Positions 1 through 52,806 are shown, counted from the first letter of the stretch. The stretch is 64,000 bases of DNA from an uncultured Bacteroidales bacterium (GCA_900317715.1 ONHS01000003.1:7954-71953); one strand, 5' to 3'. Made by a program: numbers and translations. The notes: a model not told the origin generated them from the letters alone.

Positions 1-976
1 TATTTACGTTATCTTGATGATTTTCACCACCTTATGGTTAGGATTCTTGGGCGGAAGCGATGACTACATCAAAGTGTTCAAGAAAAACAAGGAAGGGCTT
101 TCCCCACGCAAGAAGCTGATTGGTCAGATTCTGTTGGGTTTGGTCGTGGGTATCGTCATGTACTTCCATCCCGATGCCATGATTTGTGAGAAAAGCGTGC
201 AAAAGCAACAGGTGACACAAGTGTCGGCCACCGAGCTGTTACAAGTTGAGAATCAGGAAAATGTTCATACGCCAAGACTCTTTGACGAACCGCACCACTC
301 TTCCAAAACAACCATTCCGTTCTTTAAAAACCACGAACTCGACTATGCGGCGCTGACTCGCTGGTTGGGTGATGAAACCGGCAAATGGTCATTTCTGTTC
401 TTCATCCCCATCATTGTCTTTATCATCGCGGCAGTCTCGAACGGTGCAAACCTCACCGATGGCTTGGACGGACTAGCCACCGGCACCACGGCACCCATAG
501 CGGTAGGTATCGCACTGCTTGCCTACGTGTCGGGCAACGTCATCTTCGCCTCCTACCTGAATATCATGTACATACCGAATATCGGGGAGTTAGTGATCTT
601 CATGTCCGCCGTCATTGGCGCCTGCATCGGCTTCTATTGGTGGAATTGTTATCCCGCGCAGGTGTTCATGGGCGACACCGGCAGCCTCACCCTCGGCGGC
701 ATCGTGGCCGTCTCGTGCATCATCATCCGTAAGGAATTGCTCATTCCCATTCTCTGTGGTATCTATCTGGCACAGTCCATTTCCGTCATCATGCAAGTCT
801 CCTACTTCAAATACACCAAGAAAAAATATGGTGAAGGCCGCCGTATCTTCTTGATGGCCCCCCTCCACCATCATTACCAGAAGAAAGGCCTCCACGAATC
901 GAAAATCGTACAACGGTTCATCGTCGTGAGCATGCTCCTCGCCGTACTGACATTGGTGACCTTGAAGATAAGGTAA
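1..976 (+). CDS. mraY: Phospho-N-acetylmuramoyl-pentapeptide transferase MraY, 5'-truncated by the window edge
   Basis: The frame is open from nt 2, upstream of the track's TTG at 14. Multi-TM protein with MraY-type motifs (GGSDDYIKV, NGANLTDGLDGLA, MGDTGSLTLGG, APLHHHY). Stop TAA at 974-976. Confidence 0.93.
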   Translation, partial: IYVILMIFTTLWLGFLGGSDDYIKVFKKNKEGLSPRKKLIGQILLGLVVGIVMYFHPDAMICEKSVQKQQVTQVSATELLQVENQENVHTPRLFDEPHHSSKTTIPFFKNHELDYAALTRWLGDETGKWSFLFFIPIIVFIIAAVSNGANLTDGLDGLATGTTAPIAVGIALLAYVSGNVIFASYLNIMYIPNIGELVIFMSAVIGACIGFYWWNCYPAQVFMGDTGSLTLGGIVAVSCIIIRKELLIPILCGIYLAQSISVIMQVSYFKYTKKKYGEGRRIFLMAPLHHHYQKKGLHESKIVQRFIVVSMLLAVLTLVTLKIR

Positions 977-982
977 CTTTGA

Positions 983-1108
983 ACTTAGACTTAGACTTAA
1001 ACTTAGACTTAGACTATTCCCTACTCCCTTCTCCCTATTCCCTAAACCCTAAACCTTAAACCTTAAACCATAAACCTAAAACCAAAACCAAAACCAAAAC
1101 CAAAAACC
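983..1108. repeat. Degenerate short tandem array: ACTTAG hexamers, then TATTCCC/TAAACCC/TAAACCT heptamers, then AAACCA hexamers
   Basis: Read directly from the sequence. It fills the whole mraY/murD-like spacer. TAA recurs at 7-nt spacing on the + strand. Confidence 0.9.
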
Positions 1109-1111
1109 ATT

Positions 1112-1669
1112 ATGCCTACGAAAAAAAACAACAGTTTCCGCTTATTCGAACAAGCCCGCGAAACCTCTAACCCGCGCGTGGGAACGCTTTCGGACCAGCT
1201 TATCCGACTGCGTCAGAAGAACATCGCCGAATCTCTGTCCGACTTTGAGGGCAGTGCACATAAATTGGAACATATCAAGAGTTTTTCCGGTGTGGATTTC
1301 GTGGACGACGCGCGTTCCAACACCTCCAACGCTGTCTGGTTTTCGCTGCAATCCATGACCAAACCCACCGTTTGGATCACCAATATCGACTCTCCTGAGT
1401 TACTGACCGACGATATCATGACGCAAGTGCAAGAGAAAGTGAAAGAGGTTGTACTGCAAGGCGTCTATAACATCGACGTGTACCAAAAAATTGCCGAAAA
1501 AGAGATTCCGGTTATGATGACCATGAGCATGGAAGATGCTGTCAATCACGCATTTTACGCATGCCAGAAAGGCGATTTAGTGTTATACGCACCAGGGGTC
1601 CACGGCAATGGACAGGTCACCTTCCGCGAACGCGGCGACCGTTTCAAAGCAGCTGTAGCCCAACTTTAA
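1112..1669 (+). CDS. Stand-alone MurD C-terminal-domain-like protein (185 aa); a truncated or diverged murD
   Basis: ATG at 1112. It sits in the canonical murD slot between mraY and ftsW. It aligns by eye only to the C-terminal domain of UDP-MurNAc-L-Ala:D-Glu ligase (GSAHKLEHI...VDFVDDARSNTSNA versus the usual G.PHR.E....NDSKATN, and TFRERGDRFKAAV at the C-terminus). The N-terminal and central ATP-binding domains are absent. Confidence 0.7.
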   Translation: MPTKKNNSFRLFEQARETSNPRVGTLSDQLIRLRQKNIAESLSDFEGSAHKLEHIKSFSGVDFVDDARSNTSNAVWFSLQSMTKPTVWITNIDSPELLTDDIMTQVQEKVKEVVLQGVYNIDVYQKIAEKEIPVMMTMSMEDAVNHAFYACQKGDLVLYAPGVHGNGQVTFRERGDRFKAAVAQL

Positions 1670-1681
1670 AACCGAACGATT

Positions 1682-2863
1682 ATGAGCGCTGACATCACCG
1701 TGCCGAAAGGCTCTTTTCTTCAGAAAATCAAGCTGAATTCTGACAACGTGATTCCTATCGTCGTCTTTTTCCTAACGGCGATATCCATTGTCATGGTATA
1801 TAGTATGCGCGGCAATGTGGTGCTCAATCACCTCAAGCACATACTGTTCGCATACGTCGGCATGTTCGCGATGTACCGTATCGACTATCGGAAACTGGGC
1901 GTCATTGCCCCGTTTTTGCTCATCACAGCCGCTGTTCTGCTCCTGCTCACCATGCTGTCGCAGGCAGTGCGCGGCATTACCATCTTCGGGCGCGACGTGC
2001 AGACTTTCTACGTCATCGGATTTCTCATCATCTTCTACATTTCCAACTACATGGCACGTCAGTACCATAAATTCGGAGAAATCTCAAGCTCCAATGTCAA
2101 ATACCTCTTCGGATTGCTGCTGGTCTTCTGCCTCGGTATAGCTTCCATGAACATGTCCACCTCTATCATCCTCTTTGGCACAGGATTGGCCATCTTTTTT
2201 GTTGGAGGGATGAGGACAAGGGACATTTTTGGATTAATCGGCATCGTGACCGTGGCGCTGATTTTAGTGGTGATTGTGGTGTCGCAGTTGAGCGATGAAA
2301 AAAAGAGCCGCATCGGTCGTATGTCAACTTTCATCAACCGATGGGAGTACTACATCACCAAAGAAAATGTAAACGGCTACGGTGACCAAATGATCTTGGC
2401 ACGGGCCGCCATCGCACGCTCAGGATTCAACCCCGCCGGACCGGGAAAGGGCGTCATCAAGAACAGACTTCCTGAAAAGGAAACCGACTACGCCTTTGCC
2501 TCCCTGTACGAAGAAACGGGCATCGTAGTGGGCATTATCGTGCTGTTCTCCTACCTCATCATCTTCTATCGAGCGCGAAAAATCTCCATGGAAGCCACCG
2601 GCACTTTCGGACGACTATTGGCCTTCGGCATCGGCTTCTGGTTCACATGCCAAGCGCTGGTGCATATCGGAGTGAACTGCGAACTGCTGCCCACCACGGG
2701 ACAAACCCTGCCGTTCATCAGCAGCGGCGGCGCCTCCCTGTTCGTCTCCGGCTGCGCCATCGGCATGCTCCTCAACGTCGGTAAAGTCTCCTACCTCGAA
2801 AGCCAAAAAGAAGACCCGATGACCATCCTTCGAGGAAACCCAACCCCTACCATAAACCATTAA
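1682..2863 (+). CDS. ftsW: FtsW/RodA (SEDS) family peptidoglycan polymerase / cell-division protein
   Basis: ATG start. About 10 TM segments. SEDS-type C-terminal motif (LPTTGQTLPFISSGGASL). Located in the dcw position after murD. Confidence 0.88.
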   Translation: MSADITVPKGSFLQKIKLNSDNVIPIVVFFLTAISIVMVYSMRGNVVLNHLKHILFAYVGMFAMYRIDYRKLGVIAPFLLITAAVLLLLTMLSQAVRGITIFGRDVQTFYVIGFLIIFYISNYMARQYHKFGEISSSNVKYLFGLLLVFCLGIASMNMSTSIILFGTGLAIFFVGGMRTRDIFGLIGIVTVALILVVIVVSQLSDEKKSRIGRMSTFINRWEYYITKENVNGYGDQMILARAAIARSGFNPAGPGKGVIKNRLPEKETDYAFASLYEETGIVVGIIVLFSYLIIFYRARKISMEATGTFGRLLAFGIGFWFTCQALVHIGVNCELLPTTGQTLPFISSGGASLFVSGCAIGMLLNVGKVSYLESQKEDPMTILRGNPTPTINH

Positions 2864-2865
2864 CG

Positions 2866-3010
2866 TATAACCCTCTAACCCTTTAACCTTCTAAACCATA
2901 AACCATAAACCCTAAACCATAAACCCTAAACTCTAAACCCTAAACTCTAAACCCTAAACTCTAAACTAATAACCCTTTAACCGCCTAACCGTCTAACCCC
3001 CTCTCAACCC
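2866..3010. repeat. Degenerate heptamer array (ATAAACC / CTAAACC / CTAAACT family)
   Basis: About 20 consecutive 7-nt units read directly. TAA falls in all three + frames. It fills the ftsW/ABC-F spacer. Confidence 0.92.
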
Positions 3011-3016
3011 AAAAGA

Positions 3017-4948
3017 ATGATCCAAATCAATAAACTTTCGGTGAACTTCACGGGAGATTTCCTTTTTAAGGACATCTCTTTCGTGGCAGGCGACAAAGAC
3101 CGCATCGGGCTGGTGGGTCACAACGGCGCGGGAAAATCCACGTTACTGAAAATCATCCACCGCGACCTGGAACCTGCATCCGGCACGATGGTCATCACCT
3201 CCGGCCACCGCGTGGGCTATCTGCCGCAGGAACTGGTCGGAAACTCCCCGCTATCCGTGTGGGAAGAAGCCGTCTCCGCCTTCTCGGAAATCAAAGTGAT
3301 GGAACGCAAAATGCAACAGATTTCCACAGAACTTGCTGAACGCACCGATTACGAATCCGAAGCATACGCTAAGCTGACCCAACAGCTTTCCGACCTCAAC
3401 GACCGATATAACCATCTGGGAGGCAATACGATGGATGCCGAAACCGAAAAAGTGCTGCTCGGTATGGGCTTCCTACGCGAGGAATTCCATCAGCCCATGT
3501 CCTCCTTCAGTAACGGCTGGCAGATGCGCGTCTGCCTTGCCAAAATCCTCCTGCAAAAACCCGAAATCATCCTCCTCGACGAGCCCACGAACCATCTCGA
3601 CATCGAATCTATACAATGGCTGGAAGAGTATTTAGCCAATTACGACGGCTGCGTGATTCTGGTCTCCCACGACCGCGCCTTCCTCGACCGCGTCACCAAC
3701 CGTACCGTCGAAATCACCTTAGGCACCATCCAAGACTATAAATGCAGCTACTCCAAATATGTGGAGCAGCGATTGGAACGCATTGAAAGCCAACAATCTG
3801 CATACGAAAACCAACAGAAAGAGATTGCTCAAATCGAACGTTTCATCGAACGTTTCCGCTATAAAGCCACGAAGGCACGGCAAGTGCAAAGCCGCATCAA
3901 AATGCTGGAGAAAATGGACCGTGTGGAAGTGGATGAATACGACAAAAGTTCCATTTCGTTCAAATTTCCGCCCGCGCCGCACTCCGGATTGGTCGTAGTG
4001 GAGAGTAAGAACCTCAGCTTGGGCTACGACACGAAGCCACACGTGCTCACAAATGTGGATTTCCGCTTGGAACGCGGCGAGCGCGTGGCGTTCGTTGGGC
4101 GTAACGGCGAAGGCAAATCCACCATGGTGAAAGCCATCGTGAACGCACTCACGCCCGAAAGCGGAGAGTTAGAACTTGGTTATCAGGTGGTTGTGGGTTA
4201 CTACGCCCAAAACCAAGCACAACTTTTGAATCCGGAAAAAACGGTGTTTGAAACCATCGACGATGTGGCGGTAGGCGATATCCGACCGAAAATCCGCACC
4301 ATCTTGGGCAGCTTCCTTTTCGACACGGAAGACACGGAAAAGAAGGTGAAAGTGCTGTCAGGTGGAGAAAAAGCCCGCCTCGCCTTGGCAAAACTGCTGC
4401 TCTCCCCCTTCAACCTACTCATCCTCGACGAGCCGACCAACCACCTCGACATGCCCTCCAAAGACGTGCTCAAGAACGCCCTTTTGCAATATGAAGGAAG
4501 CCTGATCCTGGTCTCCCACGACCGTGACTTCCTGCAAGGATTGACCTCCAAAGTGTATGAGTTCAAGAATCACCAGATGCACGCCTTCACAGGTGATGTC
4601 TATGACTTCTTGGCACAACGCAAAATGGAGAGTCTCAACGAGTTGCAGAGTCGGAATGTTGCCTCCAACAACGGGGCTGCTGGCGAAAAGACAACCTCCA
4701 ACAAAGAGCAATGGGAACAGCGCAAGCAGCGCGAAGCCGATGACCGCAAACGTAAAAACCGCCTCAAAAAGATTGAAGAGGAGATTGCCTCTTTGCAGCA
4801 AAAGCTCGCCGACACCGAAGCGCAATTGGCTGACCCCGAGCATCATGCCGAAGCCATCGCCTCCGGCGAACTCTACAACACCTACGAATCCCTGAAAAAC
4901 ACCATCGAAGAGAAAGAGATGGAGTGGCTGGAGTTAAGCGAAGCATAA
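3017..4948 (+). CDS. ABC-F family ATPase (two ABC cassettes, no TM domain, K/E-rich coiled-coil tail)
   Basis: Two Walker A motifs (GHNGAGKST, GRNGEGKST), two Walker B motifs (ILLDEPTNHLD, LILDEPTNHLD) and the signature LSGGEKARLAL. The charged C-terminal coil is typical of Uup/YbiT-like ABC-F proteins. Confidence 0.9.
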   Translation: MIQINKLSVNFTGDFLFKDISFVAGDKDRIGLVGHNGAGKSTLLKIIHRDLEPASGTMVITSGHRVGYLPQELVGNSPLSVWEEAVSAFSEIKVMERKMQQISTELAERTDYESEAYAKLTQQLSDLNDRYNHLGGNTMDAETEKVLLGMGFLREEFHQPMSSFSNGWQMRVCLAKILLQKPEIILLDEPTNHLDIESIQWLEEYLANYDGCVILVSHDRAFLDRVTNRTVEITLGTIQDYKCSYSKYVEQRLERIESQQSAYENQQKEIAQIERFIERFRYKATKARQVQSRIKMLEKMDRVEVDEYDKSSISFKFPPAPHSGLVVVESKNLSLGYDTKPHVLTNVDFRLERGERVAFVGRNGEGKSTMVKAIVNALTPESGELELGYQVVVGYYAQNQAQLLNPEKTVFETIDDVAVGDIRPKIRTILGSFLFDTEDTEKKVKVLSGGEKARLALAKLLLSPFNLLILDEPTNHLDMPSKDVLKNALLQYEGSLILVSHDRDFLQGLTSKVYEFKNHQMHAFTGDVYDFLAQRKMESLNELQSRNVASNNGAAGEKTTSNKEQWEQRKQREADDRKRKNRLKKIEEEIASLQQKLADTEAQLADPEHHAEAIASGELYNTYESLKNTIEEKEMEWLELSEA

Positions 4949-7270: not shown

Positions 7271-7275
7271 CAACC

Positions 7276-7340
7276 GTCAAAATCAATATCATAAATCAAA
7301 AGTCATAAGTCAAACGTCAAACGTCATACGTCATACATCT
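7276..7340. repeat. Degenerate heptamer array (GTCAAAC / GTCATAC / GTCATAA family)
   Basis: Read directly. On the complementary strand it reads GTATGAC/GTTTGAC, with TGA at 7-nt spacing. Confidence 0.85.
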
Positions 7341-13209: not shown

Positions 13210-13792
13210 GATCGCCATTGCTGAACCTTCACAGATGCTGCGCAACGGCCTCGCCGACCTCTTGCGCGACGTGCCCGACACGGAGGTGGTCTTCTCCACG
13301 GACAACCTGAACGCATTGTTTTCCAGAATGCCGGCGTTGCATGCGGACATTCTGATTATCAACCCGTTGCTCTTCGAGTACAGCCACCGCGCCACGCTCC
13401 GCGCCGAATTCGACAACCATCCCGAACTGCGCCTCATCGCTCTCGTCACCTCTTACCTCGAATCCCAGCATCTCCGCCAGTTCTCCGGCATCATCGAACT
13501 CAACGACGACCTCCAGCGCGTGAAATCGACCATCAACCAGGTGGTCAACACCCTCCAATCCGACGGCGACGAACCTGACACCGACCCCCTCTCCGACCGC
13601 GAAAAAGAGGTCCTCATCTGCCTCTCCAAAGGTCTGAAAAACAACGAAATAGCAGATACTCTCAACATCTCCGTCCACACCGTCATCACCCACCGCAAAA
13701 ACATCGTCCGCAAAACCGGCATCAAATCCGTCGCGGCGCTGACGGTATATGCGATATTGAACAATTTGATTGAAGAAAAAGACATCATTTAG
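13202..13792 (+). CDS. LuxR/FixJ-family DNA-binding regulator with a degenerate (pseudo-)receiver domain
   Basis: ATG overlaps the upstream stop by 8 nt (ATGATTAA). C-terminal LuxR HTH (LSDREKEVLICLSKGLKNNEIADTLNISVHTVITHRKNI). The N-terminal REC-like fold lacks the acidic pocket (IAIAEPS instead of DD; ILIINP instead of the phospho-Asp motif). Confidence 0.8.
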   Translation: MIKIAIAEPSQMLRNGLADLLRDVPDTEVVFSTDNLNALFSRMPALHADILIINPLLFEYSHRATLRAEFDNHPELRLIALVTSYLESQHLRQFSGIIELNDDLQRVKSTINQVVNTLQSDGDEPDTDPLSDREKEVLICLSKGLKNNEIADTLNISVHTVITHRKNIVRKTGIKSVAALTVYAILNNLIEEKDII

Positions 13793-13985
13793 TTAGCAGT
13801 TAGCAGTTAGTAGTTAGTAGTTAGCAGTTTATGCCGAAAGAGCCACTATATATTAAACTACTTCCTTGAGCAGCCCCGCTAGGGGCAAGAGCTAGGTAGC
13901 CAGGGGTGAGCGCAGCGAAACCCCTGGGACGGATGACGACGATGACACGATGATGCGATGAATGACGATGATGAATAACGAATAC
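13793..13985 (+). repeat. Structured intergenic repeat (MITE/REP-like), copy A: TTAGCAG/TTAGTAG heptamers, a ~105-nt core with two stem-loops, then a GATGA-rich tail
   Basis: Core 13828-13932 is near-identical to 15944-16046 and, in inverse orientation, similar to 39261-39368. Stem-loops GCCCC-gcta-GGGGC and CCAGGGG-n14-CCCCTGG. Confidence 0.85.
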
Positions 13986-16090: not shown

Positions 16091-16165
16091 AATAATTATG
16101 CATTATGAATTACAAATTATGAATTTAATTGTGCATTATGCATTATGAATTATGAATTTATAAAG
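16091..16165. repeat. Degenerate heptamer array (ATTATGA / ATTATGC family)
   Basis: Read directly. TGA at 7-nt spacing on the + strand. Overlaps the spurious TTG/ATG-extended start of the next gene. Confidence 0.85.
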
Positions 16166-28966: not shown

Positions 28967-29002
28967 TGTTTTGATTTTATTCTATGAACATTCCCCAAAA
29001 GC

Positions 29003-29044
29003 CAACAGCCAAAAGCCAACAGCTAACAGCTAACAGCCAAAGAC
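29003..29044. repeat. Degenerate heptamer array (CAACAGC / TAACAGC; complement TTAGCTG family)
   Basis: Six units read directly. The last ~7 codons and the TAG stop of tex lie inside the array. Confidence 0.85.
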
Positions 29045-31176: not shown

Positions 31177-31325
31177 GACTTATGACGTTGGACGTATGAT
31201 TTTGATTTATGATTTATGACGTTGAAAATATAACTATTTACTCGTAATCTTATCTCAAGTCACACGTCACACGTCACACGTCACACGTCACACGTCATAA
31301 AACACACGTCACACGTCAACGTCTC
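31177..31325. repeat. Two opposed heptamer arrays: GACTTAT/GACGTAT/ATTTATG (31177-31233) and GTCACAC/GTCATAA (31259-31325)
   Basis: Read directly. The GACGTAT family is the reverse complement (by rotation) of the GTCATAC family, giving an imperfect long inverted repeat. Confidence 0.88.
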
Positions 31326-40575: not shown

Positions 40576-40675
40576 GCTGTTGGCCATTAGCTATTAGCTG
40601 TTAGCTGTTAGCTGTTAGCTGTTGGCTGTTGGCTGTAAGCTTCAACTACTAACTACTAACTACTAACTGCTAACT
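40576..40675. repeat. Opposed heptamer arrays: GCTGTTA/GCTATTA x9, then CTACTAA x4-5
   Basis: Read directly. CTACTAA is the reverse complement of TTAGTAG, so the two halves form an imperfect inverted repeat. Confidence 0.9.
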
Positions 40676-40707
40676 AAAAAAAAGCGACCGATTCGAAAAC
40701 CGGTCGC
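40676..40707 (-). terminator. Rho-independent terminator ending the rpoBC-DUF3467 transcription unit
   Basis: Minus strand: GCGACCG-gttttcgaat-CGGTCGC followed by T8. Lies 33 nt after the stop at 40740. Confidence 0.8.
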
Positions 40708-52570: not shown

Positions 52571-52690
52571 GCATTTTTTTTAATCAAACCCCCACTGTTG
52601 AAAAAAAAATTTCACTATGGCACGCTTTTTGTAGTAAAAATCGTTAACCATCTGAGAATCAAAACCTAATCTCTTAATCCTCCCACAGAT

Positions 52691-52778
52691 CTTCCATCTT
52701 ACTTCTTCCATCATCCATCTTCCAACATTCATCATTCATCATTCTTCATTATGCATTATGAATTATGAATTATGAATT
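52691..52778. repeat. Opposed heptamer arrays: CTTCCAT/CATTCAT, then CATTATG/AATTATG
   Basis: Read directly. ATGAATT is close to the reverse complement of CATTCAT, giving an imperfect inverted repeat. Confidence 0.88.
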
Positions 52779-52806
52779 AAAAAAGGGACTCCCTTCCGGA
52801 AGTCCC
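52779..52806 (-). terminator. Rho-independent terminator of the OmpA-family gene
   Basis: Minus strand: GGGACTTCC-gg-AAGGGAGTCCC imperfect hairpin followed by T6. Lies 25 nt after the stop at 52831. Confidence 0.7.

Follow-up and report, generated by a model that had tools for sequence, protein, structure and literature searches.

The mraY-ftsW interval

The stretch of DNA analysed here (64,000 nucleotides from an uncultured rumen Bacteroidales bacterium, GCA_900317715.1 ONHS01000003.1:7954-71953; henceforth the window) lies on contig G000:C96 of a host genome, G000, that is 100% complete. On this contig, the dcw gene cluster runs mraZ-rsmH-ftsI-murE-mraY-murD-C-ftsW and ends after ftsW, since the next gene encodes an ABC-F ATPase. 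The subject of this work is murD-C, an intact open reading frame (ORF) of 185 amino acids at positions 1112-1669 of the plus strand, which a preliminary description of the window had placed between mraY and ftsW, behind a 135-nt repeat array at 977-1111; both features are as described there. MurD and its third domain are textbook knowledge, the Mur ligases are antibiotic targets, and it has long been asked whether they act as a physical complex.

The product of murD-C resembles only MurD's C-terminal domain, as the preliminary description had proposed. It aligns with positions 285-440 of the 441 positions of the MurD model TIGR01087 (E 9.3e-22), so that the homology on which that proposal depended is significant, and it scores 77.7 bits against an equivalog cut-off of 211.95, without three-domain coverage. 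Residues 299-439 of Thermotoga maritima MurD (PDB 4buc) are matched with E 7.5e-8. The match to Pfam family PF02875 (14.6 bits, E 0.059) lies below the gathering score of 28.4, which less diverged short forms from other lineages pass (e.g. P0132, 59.2 bits). An AlphaFold2 model built on 43 homologues has a predicted local distance difference test score of about 90 over residues 50-185 and of 44-53 over residues 1-49, and it displays the Rossmann-like alpha/beta fold of Mur ligase domain 3. When the PDB was searched with this model using Foldseek, the top 33 matches were MurD C-domains (probability 1.0), with template modelling (TM) scores of 0.55-0.66 against the 33 MurD chains over about 145 columns. 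Furthermore, in outgroups, the corresponding slot of the murE-mraY-ftsW series holds a 445-aa MurD whose C-domain is 28-39% identical to the short protein. Taken together, these matches make it almost certain that the short protein is a derivative of the MurD C-domain.

The short protein begins near the equivalent of Escherichia coli MurD residue 261, and the columns of the P-loop, of the catalytic D182/H183 and of the carbamylated K198 are absent from it. Only 135 nt separate the mraY stop codon from the murD-C ATG, and this gap encodes neither an N-terminal nor a central MurD domain, so that the UDP-binding and ATPase domains are indeed missing, as had been stated. Because the site for UDP-MurNAc-L-Ala and the ATPase domain are both absent, the protein cannot be a ligase. 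In the Joint Genome Institute annotation, 185-aa proteins of this kind (P0002, P0003, P0012, P0030 and others) are labelled 'UDP-N-acetylmuramoylalanine--D-glutamate ligase', a label that cannot be right for the short proteins because two of the three MurD domains are missing.

Table 1. Features of the dcw end of the window, with positions counted from its first nucleotide
Feature	Position	Strand	Basis
mraY, 3' 324 codons; gene begins upstream of the window at G000:C96:7667	2-976	+	TIGR00445, 266.9 bits, over cut-off; PF00953; full 420-aa ORF on contig
Intergenic spacer of short-period tandem arrays	977-1111	.	Tandem Repeats Finder (TRF) rows 983-1110
murD-C, intact ATG-started 185-aa ORF, stop codon included	1112-1669	+	ORF call; TIGR01087; PDB; AlphaFold2 and Foldseek
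N-terminal helical segment (residues 1-49), derived from the final helices of the MurD central domain	1112-1258	+	Alignment with full-length MurD
Hinge motif H50-K51-L52-E53 (E. coli MurD H301-R302-F303-E304)	1259-1270	+	Column counts
DDARSNT, residues 65-71, degenerate NDSKATN (E. coli N316-N322)	1304-1324	+	Sequence; column counts
Residues 89-99, ITNIDSPELLT, in place of the GGxDKGNDY loop	1376-1408	+	Alignment; column counts
Residues 162-175, GVHGNGQVTFRERG, decayed SPACAS(F/L)D loop for D-glutamate	1595-1636	+	Alignment; column counts
ftsW, 393 aa	1682-2863	+	TIGR02614, E 6.3e-54; PF01098
Second intergenic heptamer array, CTAAACC x 10.9 and others; end of dcw cluster	2864-3016	.	TRF
ABC-F ATPase, 643 aa	3017-4948	.	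Gene following the dcw cluster

Motifs kept and lost

The NDSKATN-type motif reads DDARSNT, as noted before; in the numbering of E. coli MurD, D317 is retained, and K319, T321 and N322 are replaced by R, N and T, respectively. The GGxDKGNDY loop, which bears Lys348 for binding of D-glutamate (D-Glu), has been replaced outright, and in the D-Glu loop near the C-terminus both S415 and D417 have become Gly, with F422-x-x-R425-G426 retained as F171-R172-E173-R174-G175. At the positions of T321, K348, S415 and F422, the short protein thus has N70, P95, G165 and F171, which do not make up a D-Glu pocket. Across the family of the host bacterium (the window family), the residue at the K348 position varies (V, P and others), that at S415 is either G or S, and that at D417 is G or A. 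The hinge motif H-x-L-E is present in nearly all short forms, with R302 replaced by K in the window family; it is about this hinge that the C-domains of Mur ligases rotate as rigid bodies, with Arg302 as a 'handle' (PMC4816537).

An alignment of 41 full-length Bacteroidales MurDs shows, within the 185-aa span, 75 columns with conservation of 90% or more. The window family keeps 26 of these, among them H301, E304, D317, R425-G426, the buried Trp and Leu core and the KVK strand; nine are shifted to a new conserved residue (e.g. R302 to K), and 40 are relaxed, including K319, T321, the GGxDKGNDY loop with K348, S415, D417 and F419. Judged by these residues, the canonical D-Glu pocket is lost in the window family. 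The N-terminal segment is conserved within the family, with R34 invariant and L42-S43-D44-F45 kept.

The short forms of other families (n = 27) keep D317 in 27, K319 in 24, T321 in 24, S415 in 24, D417 in 23 and R425 in 25 cases, and their losses include H267, N268 (kept in 13/27) and N271 (kept in 10/27) in what is left of the central domain. It may be that the pocket retains its importance shortly after truncation and disappears afterwards; alternatively, it may be needed in the other short-form lineages and be dispensable in the window family.

Conservation and selection

The short gene was found between mraY and ftsW in 23 of the 24 genomes sampled from the genus, with identities of 48-86%, and in 118 of 120 genomes of the family, which represent 22 genera, with open frames of 181-212 codons nearly everywhere. 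Genus g36 alone in the window family retains a 445-aa MurD in the slot. The sampled genomes are mostly metagenome-assembled genomes (MAGs); more than 100 assemblies made independently, some of them closed or single-contig, have this short gene in this slot.

The ratio of nonsynonymous to synonymous substitutions (dN/dS) was estimated pairwise by the Nei-Gojobori method for pairs with dS of 0.05-1.5, and the values are approximate given that they are near saturation (dS of murD-C about 1.2). The median dN/dS of murD-C is 0.066, to be compared with 0.073 for mraY, 0.084 for murE, 0.114 for ftsW and 0.040 for the ABC-F gene. Purifying selection on murD-C is therefore as strong as on mraY and murE, and the gene is very probably a maintained, functional one. 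The preliminary description had called for an estimate of dN/dS and a survey of relatives and had offered two readings, a decaying remnant and a retained stand-alone domain with a new role. The first of these does not survive the equality of dN/dS with mraY and murE and the constancy of length across 22 genera and at least 21 families, and the second fits the data on selection and conservation. The collapse of a longer gene in assembly, which the same description had named as a possible undoing of its observation, is excluded because more than 100 independent assemblies, some closed, agree.

A second MurD and a MurL homologue in the host genome

An alternative route of glutamate incorporation, through MurD2 and MurL, was reportedly described in Xanthomonas oryzae by Feng et al. 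in 2017. In this route, MurD2 adds L-Glu, which MurL then epimerises with ATP (PMC8788868); the double mutation E197D/R358K turns MurD2 back to D-Glu, and Xanthomonas MurL works alone in vitro (PMC8788868).

The preliminary description had argued that a functional MurD must exist elsewhere in the genome, and a search of the whole genome with TIGR01087 did produce one full-length MurD (G000:C50:7214-8590; 458 aa, 329.5 bits, positions 1-439). The C50 MurD is 22% identical to the short protein and 28-31% identical to dcw-type MurDs of Bacteroidota. In an alignment with E. coli MurD, Glu replaces D182 and Arg replaces K348 (in the contexts QEH and DR), and Ile and Tyr stand at K319 and L416. The Glu and the Arg are the pair of residues to which X. 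oryzae MurD2 owes its preference for L-Glu (PMC8788868). We refer to the class of MurD2-like paralogues to which it belongs as type-B MurD.

Neither the glutamate racemase model TIGR00067 (MurI) nor the Asp/Glu racemase family PF01177 has a match in the host genome, the D-amino-acid transaminase model TIGR01121 has a 32-bit match only, and MurI over cut-off occurs in none of 121 window-family genomes. Such a profile is the hallmark of the Xanthomonas-type route. The genome does encode a homologue of MurL (NF041275; 217.9 bits for the C86 piece), split over two contigs (G000:C39:16961-17520 and G000:C86:1289-2140). Because the contig ends overlap by 32 codons, encoding VIVPIGGGKDSVVTLEDLRRTRKVVPFIINPR, C39 and C86 are adjacent and the host murL is probably intact, with a product of about 437 aa. 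This product carries a PP-loop-like GGGKDS motif (IVPIGGGKDSVV) and the Cys cluster CGHCPKC. The complete 434-aa homologue of a congener scores 244.7 bits, with NF041275 as the sole NCBIfam family matched; both scores lie below the curated cut-off of 700 bits, which is tuned to Xanthomonadales. None of 14 control genomes has an NF041275 match at E 1e-20.

The TIGR01087 search of the whole genome brought up no gene limited to the N-terminal and central parts of MurD. The idea that murD had been split into two genes was rejected on the finding that all seven related loci (MurC, Mpl, MurE, MurF, MurF-Alr, FolC and the C50 MurD) are full-length. One of these, at G000:C62:8601-11057 on the minus strand, encodes an 818-aa protein in which a MurF-like ligase is fused to alanine racemase (Mur_ligase_M plus Ala_racemase_N/C), besides which a separate 417-aa MurF is encoded on C114.

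Distribution across Bacteroidales

In a sample of 201 Bacteroidales genomes, MurL occurs in 74, a set identical to that of the genomes with type-B MurD plus one (G192), and MurI exceeds its cut-off in 120. The two co-occur in a single genome (G264, in 460 contigs) and are both absent from eight, so that the MurD2/MurL pair and MurI are almost mutually exclusive across the order.

The dcw slot of the 74 MurL-positive genomes shows more than one state. A short form of 176-192 aa (222 aa in one case) is present in at least 28 genomes from at least 21 families; in 31 genomes, the slot holds a full-length MurD with every catalytic residue intact; three have no match, and 12 are not resolved. No short form was found among the MurI-positive genomes that were examined. 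Examples of the coexistence of an intact dcw MurD and MurD2/MurL without a racemase are L162 (G181:C30), L164 (G322:C143) and L105 (G060:C6); it is possible that the D-Glu of these 31 genomes comes from environmental salvage or recycling.

By their coordinates, murL lies directly beside type-B murD in most Bacteroidales families. In two genomes, matches to MurL and type-B MurD share one open frame (949 aa in G231:C329 and 885 aa in G224:C23), and these coordinates suggest MurL-MurD2 fusion proteins in two other Bacteroidales families. Within the window family, genus g27 has a MurD2-like ligase fused to MurB in a single 747-aa protein (L103 1721-3964, minus strand, in G116:C233; also in G096, G107, G070, G123, G084 and G051). 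This fusion involves the type-B MurD and was dismissed as irrelevant to the short gene. One genome of family f15 (G038; L160; 2.1 Mb, 10 contigs, 98% complete) has no MurI, MurL or full-length MurD at the thresholds used, and its slot holds only a very divergent 190-aa MurD-C-like ORF with a tree branch length of 4.5.

Origin of the short gene

In the alignment, the first residue of the short forms from other families coincides exactly with a Met conserved inside full-length Bacteroidales MurD (MTLEELALQGKHN); the start in the window family lies a few columns beyond this Met, and the N-terminus is replaced. In 21 families, the short genes are compact, ATG-started (176-192 codons) and located 1-108 nt after mraY, and none of the spacers was found to contain residual 5' murD sequence. 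The truncation predates the window family.

Five families contain both short and full-length forms. In a tree of the C-domain (173 columns), the short form of family f45 pairs with the full form of the same family (Shimodaira-Hasegawa-like approximate likelihood ratio test 94), and the short and full forms of f51 fall in one small group; the rest is poorly resolved. Forcing all short forms into a single clade lowers the log-likelihood by 54.7 units, and the approximately unbiased (AU) test gives p 0.042 for a clade that was defined after the tree was seen, which rejects a single origin of these sequences only marginally. Repeated truncation to the same internal start is likely, and we word it no more strongly because of the poor resolution of the tree, the AU p-value and the definition of the group after the tree.

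These observations would be explained if the lineage switched the way in which D-glutamate enters peptidoglycan to the MurD2/MurL route. With MurD2/MurL carrying the flux, the dcw MurD could have lost its UDP-binding and ATPase domains, the translation start moving to the vicinity of the conserved internal Met, so that what remained was the final helices of the central domain, the hinge and the complete C-terminal domain. The takeover by MurD2/MurL is quite probably the cause of the shrinkage of the dcw murD, because a MurD2-like paralogue and MurL appear to serve a genome without glutamate racemase and the dcw MurD would be free to lose its catalytic domains.

Two kinds of apparent fusion were considered and discarded: the long frames at the slot in G151 and G147 are out-of-frame read-throughs over mraY, and database proteins of greater length that match MurD-C represent partial genes or involve unrelated neighbours. 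In a Flavobacteriaceae MAG (L064, CAZRUA010000009.1), a full-length murD is followed by a MurD-C-like ORF of 169 codons (L064 1348-1857) and then by ftsW; the extra ORF has the look of a partial duplication in tandem and not of a truncated gene.

Role of the short protein

The explanation that we favour, with some reserve, is that murD-C is a remnant of murD left behind by the MurD2/MurL takeover and kept as a non-catalytic binding module. A second, non-catalytic role is probable because conservation of the leftover matches that of its essential neighbours. As a binding module with a presumed partner, the protein would hold the former place of full-length MurD in the cytoplasmic precursor and divisome assembly of Mur ligases, MraY and FtsW. 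That it acts specifically as a protein-protein adaptor or scaffold is a plausible but tentative proposal. It draws on the conservation of the fold, the hinge face and the N-terminal helices and on the unchanged operon position 12 nt before ftsW; the retained H-K-L-E hinge, D317 and R425-G426 make up the surface with which the C-domain, in closed MurD, rests against the central domain. It draws, in addition, on the reports that MurD binds MurE-MurF with a dissociation constant of about 0.8 uM and that natural MurD-FtsW chimeras exist (PMC10214165), and on the precedent of a structural subunit resembling a Mur ligase in the plastid RNA polymerase.

Several observations weigh against this explanation. 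The L-Glu specificity of the C50 MurD and the epimerase activity of the MurL homologue are predicted from two residues and from hidden Markov model scores under the cut-off, and murL and type-B murD are not adjacent in the window family, where they lie on different contigs. The 31 MurL-positive, MurI-negative genomes that keep an intact canonical MurD imply that the takeover alone does not force truncation. Residues 1-49 are conserved yet modelled with low confidence. Finally, the retention of pocket residues in the short forms of other families is more in keeping with ligand binding than with a purely scaffolding role, at any rate beyond the window family.

Such a ligand-binding factor, which might capture product or pass it on between MurL and MurE, or else sense how much precursor is supplied, is the alternative that we take most seriously, although we consider it unlikely. 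The pocket and ATP-facing residues are kept in 23-27 of the 27 short forms of other families (R425 in 25), in the same proteins in which N268 and N271 of the central domain decay (13/27 and 10/27 kept), and the short forms are confined to MurL-positive, MurI-negative genomes. However, the retention of residues in other families could reflect recent truncation, the pocket is gone in the window family (K348, S415, D417 and the GGxDKG loop) at a dN/dS of 0.066 all the same, and Xanthomonas MurL needs no partner in vitro (PMC8788868).

It is improbable that the free canonical C-domain works in trans by docking on a different Mur ligase at its N-terminal and central domains, for instance on the MurD2-like enzyme with its own C-domain swung open, giving a D-Glu-specific site for salvage of external D-Glu. 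In favour of this stands the rigid rotation of Mur C-domains about the hinge, with the Arg302 'handle' (PMC4816537); the hinge is kept, and outside the window family so are R302, D317 and K319, which make sense only beside bound ATP. The many MurL-positive genomes that keep a full canonical MurD without MurI also suggest that D-Glu salvage is useful. Nevertheless, the genome has no Mur ligase gene limited to the N-terminal and central domains, the seven paralogues being full length; the D-Glu residues are lost in the window family, and the literature searched offers no precedent for split Mur ligases.

A dispensable protein, kept only in cis because the 3' part of murD holds the ftsW promoter or translational-coupling signals, is more improbable still. 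The ftsW start codon lies 12 nt past the murD-C stop codon, and similarly close in relatives, and the slot and orientation are invariant, as this possibility would have it, but signals of this kind would not hold dN/dS at 0.066 over 185 codons with dS of about 1.2, nor would they keep an ATG-started frame of 176-192 codons in 21 families or a well-packed fold. A decaying pseudogene or an assembly collapse, to which the degenerate DDARSNT and an upstream repeat array that could mislead an assembler might point, is scarcely credible in view of the intact frame of constant length in more than 100 independent assemblies, including closed ones, the strong purifying selection, the absence of residual 5' murD from every spacer and the full set of other Mur ligases elsewhere in the genome.

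A wider generalization from the binding-module explanation, about which we are doubtful, is that the MurD C-domain has a ligase-independent job in the precursor and divisome machinery, revealed where Bacteroidales that changed over to MurD2/MurL have repeatedly trimmed murD to this one domain or, in another version, that MurD-C is a third component of the MurD2/MurL system, for example, a chirality checkpoint or a means of hand-off to MurE.

Relation to known systems

With canonical MurD, the short protein shares fold, ancestry, the mraY-ftsW slot, the H-x-L-E hinge, D317, R425-G426 and the hydrophobic core; it differs in being devoid of domains 1 and 2, the P-loop and the carbamylated Lys, and in its decayed D-Glu pocket. 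The host genome has in common with X. oryzae (PMC8788868) the absence of MurI, a MurD paralogue with Glu/Arg and a MurL homologue. The MurD2 and MurL genes are adjacent in Xanthomonas, as in most Bacteroidales families, whereas they are unlinked in the window family, and the Xanthomonas system as described has no stand-alone MurD-C component. A review of MurD2/MurL lists only Proteobacteria and Actinobacteria (PMC8788868), and in the literature searched we found no report of a MurD C-domain standing alone, nor one of MurD2/MurL in Bacteroidales.

In the Mur complexes and chimeras (PMC10214165), MurD contacts peptidoglycan enzymes and can be joined to FtsW via its C-terminal end, and the short protein has the same neighbour; the chimeras, however, are full-length active enzymes, whereas the short protein is the tail domain alone, with no fusion found. 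The MurE-like subunit of the plastid RNA polymerase (8qma_O, 8ras_Q), which is among the Foldseek matches (E 2.2e-4), is likewise Mur-derived and is structural rather than enzymatic. It belongs to a eukaryotic organelle, to another Mur paralogue and to an unrelated complex, and the match is weak (TM 0.43), so that it may serve, by analogy, as a precedent for exaptation only.

The locus resembles a natural dissection experiment, in which the chemistry of MurD became redundant and many Bacteroidales lineages discarded two domains and kept the third in the operon slot. Retention of a domain under strong selection points to a function beyond catalysis, and the small protein is tractable for the search for partners. 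In addition, the data show the MurD2/MurL route to D-Glu to be common among Bacteroidales of the gut, the rumen and the environment, at about one in three of the sampled genomes, which matters for genome annotation and for this route as a narrow-spectrum drug target.

Intergenic repeats and flanking sequence

The spacer between mraY and murD-C consists of short-period arrays that include (ACTTAG)5.5, (CTACTCC)4.4 and (CCCTAAA)/(AAACCA)n, and among relatives the corresponding spacer varies in unit and in length (1-249 nt). TRF finds 1,346 tandem arrays in the host genome (429 per Mb), 65% of them with a period of 7, 14 or 21, and 74% of the arrays fall outside ORFs, even though ORFs of at least 110 codons cover about 89% of the genome. 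The 135-nt array is thus ordinary intergenic filler of the host genome and is neither a conserved element nor part of the gene. The preliminary description had suggested that the array replaced the 5' part of murD; this part of it finds no support, given that such arrays fill intergenic DNA throughout the genome, that the spacer differs from relative to relative and that the truncation is older than the family. A deletion scar is ruled out by the genome-wide arrays and the differing spacers of relatives, together with the lack of any leftover 5' murD.

A sigma-70 promoter and terminator scan of positions 700-3200, which does not model Bacteroidota promoters, gave nothing beyond shuffled expectation. 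The bases before the start codon (window 1101-1114), AAACCATTATG, are conserved in L031-L045, the remaining spacer being not conserved, and they may represent the translation-initiation context. The junction of ftsW with the ABC-F gene is shared by the closer congeners only (L030-L045, L056, L057), and murG-murC-ftsQAZ are located elsewhere in the host genome, with MurC on contig C41.

The arrays of the host genome are mostly heptamers, the commonest units being AACTGCT (78) and AATTATG (66), and they occur across the window, for example at 983-1110, 2868-3002, 7271-7336, 13790-13829, 16093-16160, 28995-29041, 31259-31323, 40576-40676 and 52689-52779. At the same site, array units and lengths differ among congeners.

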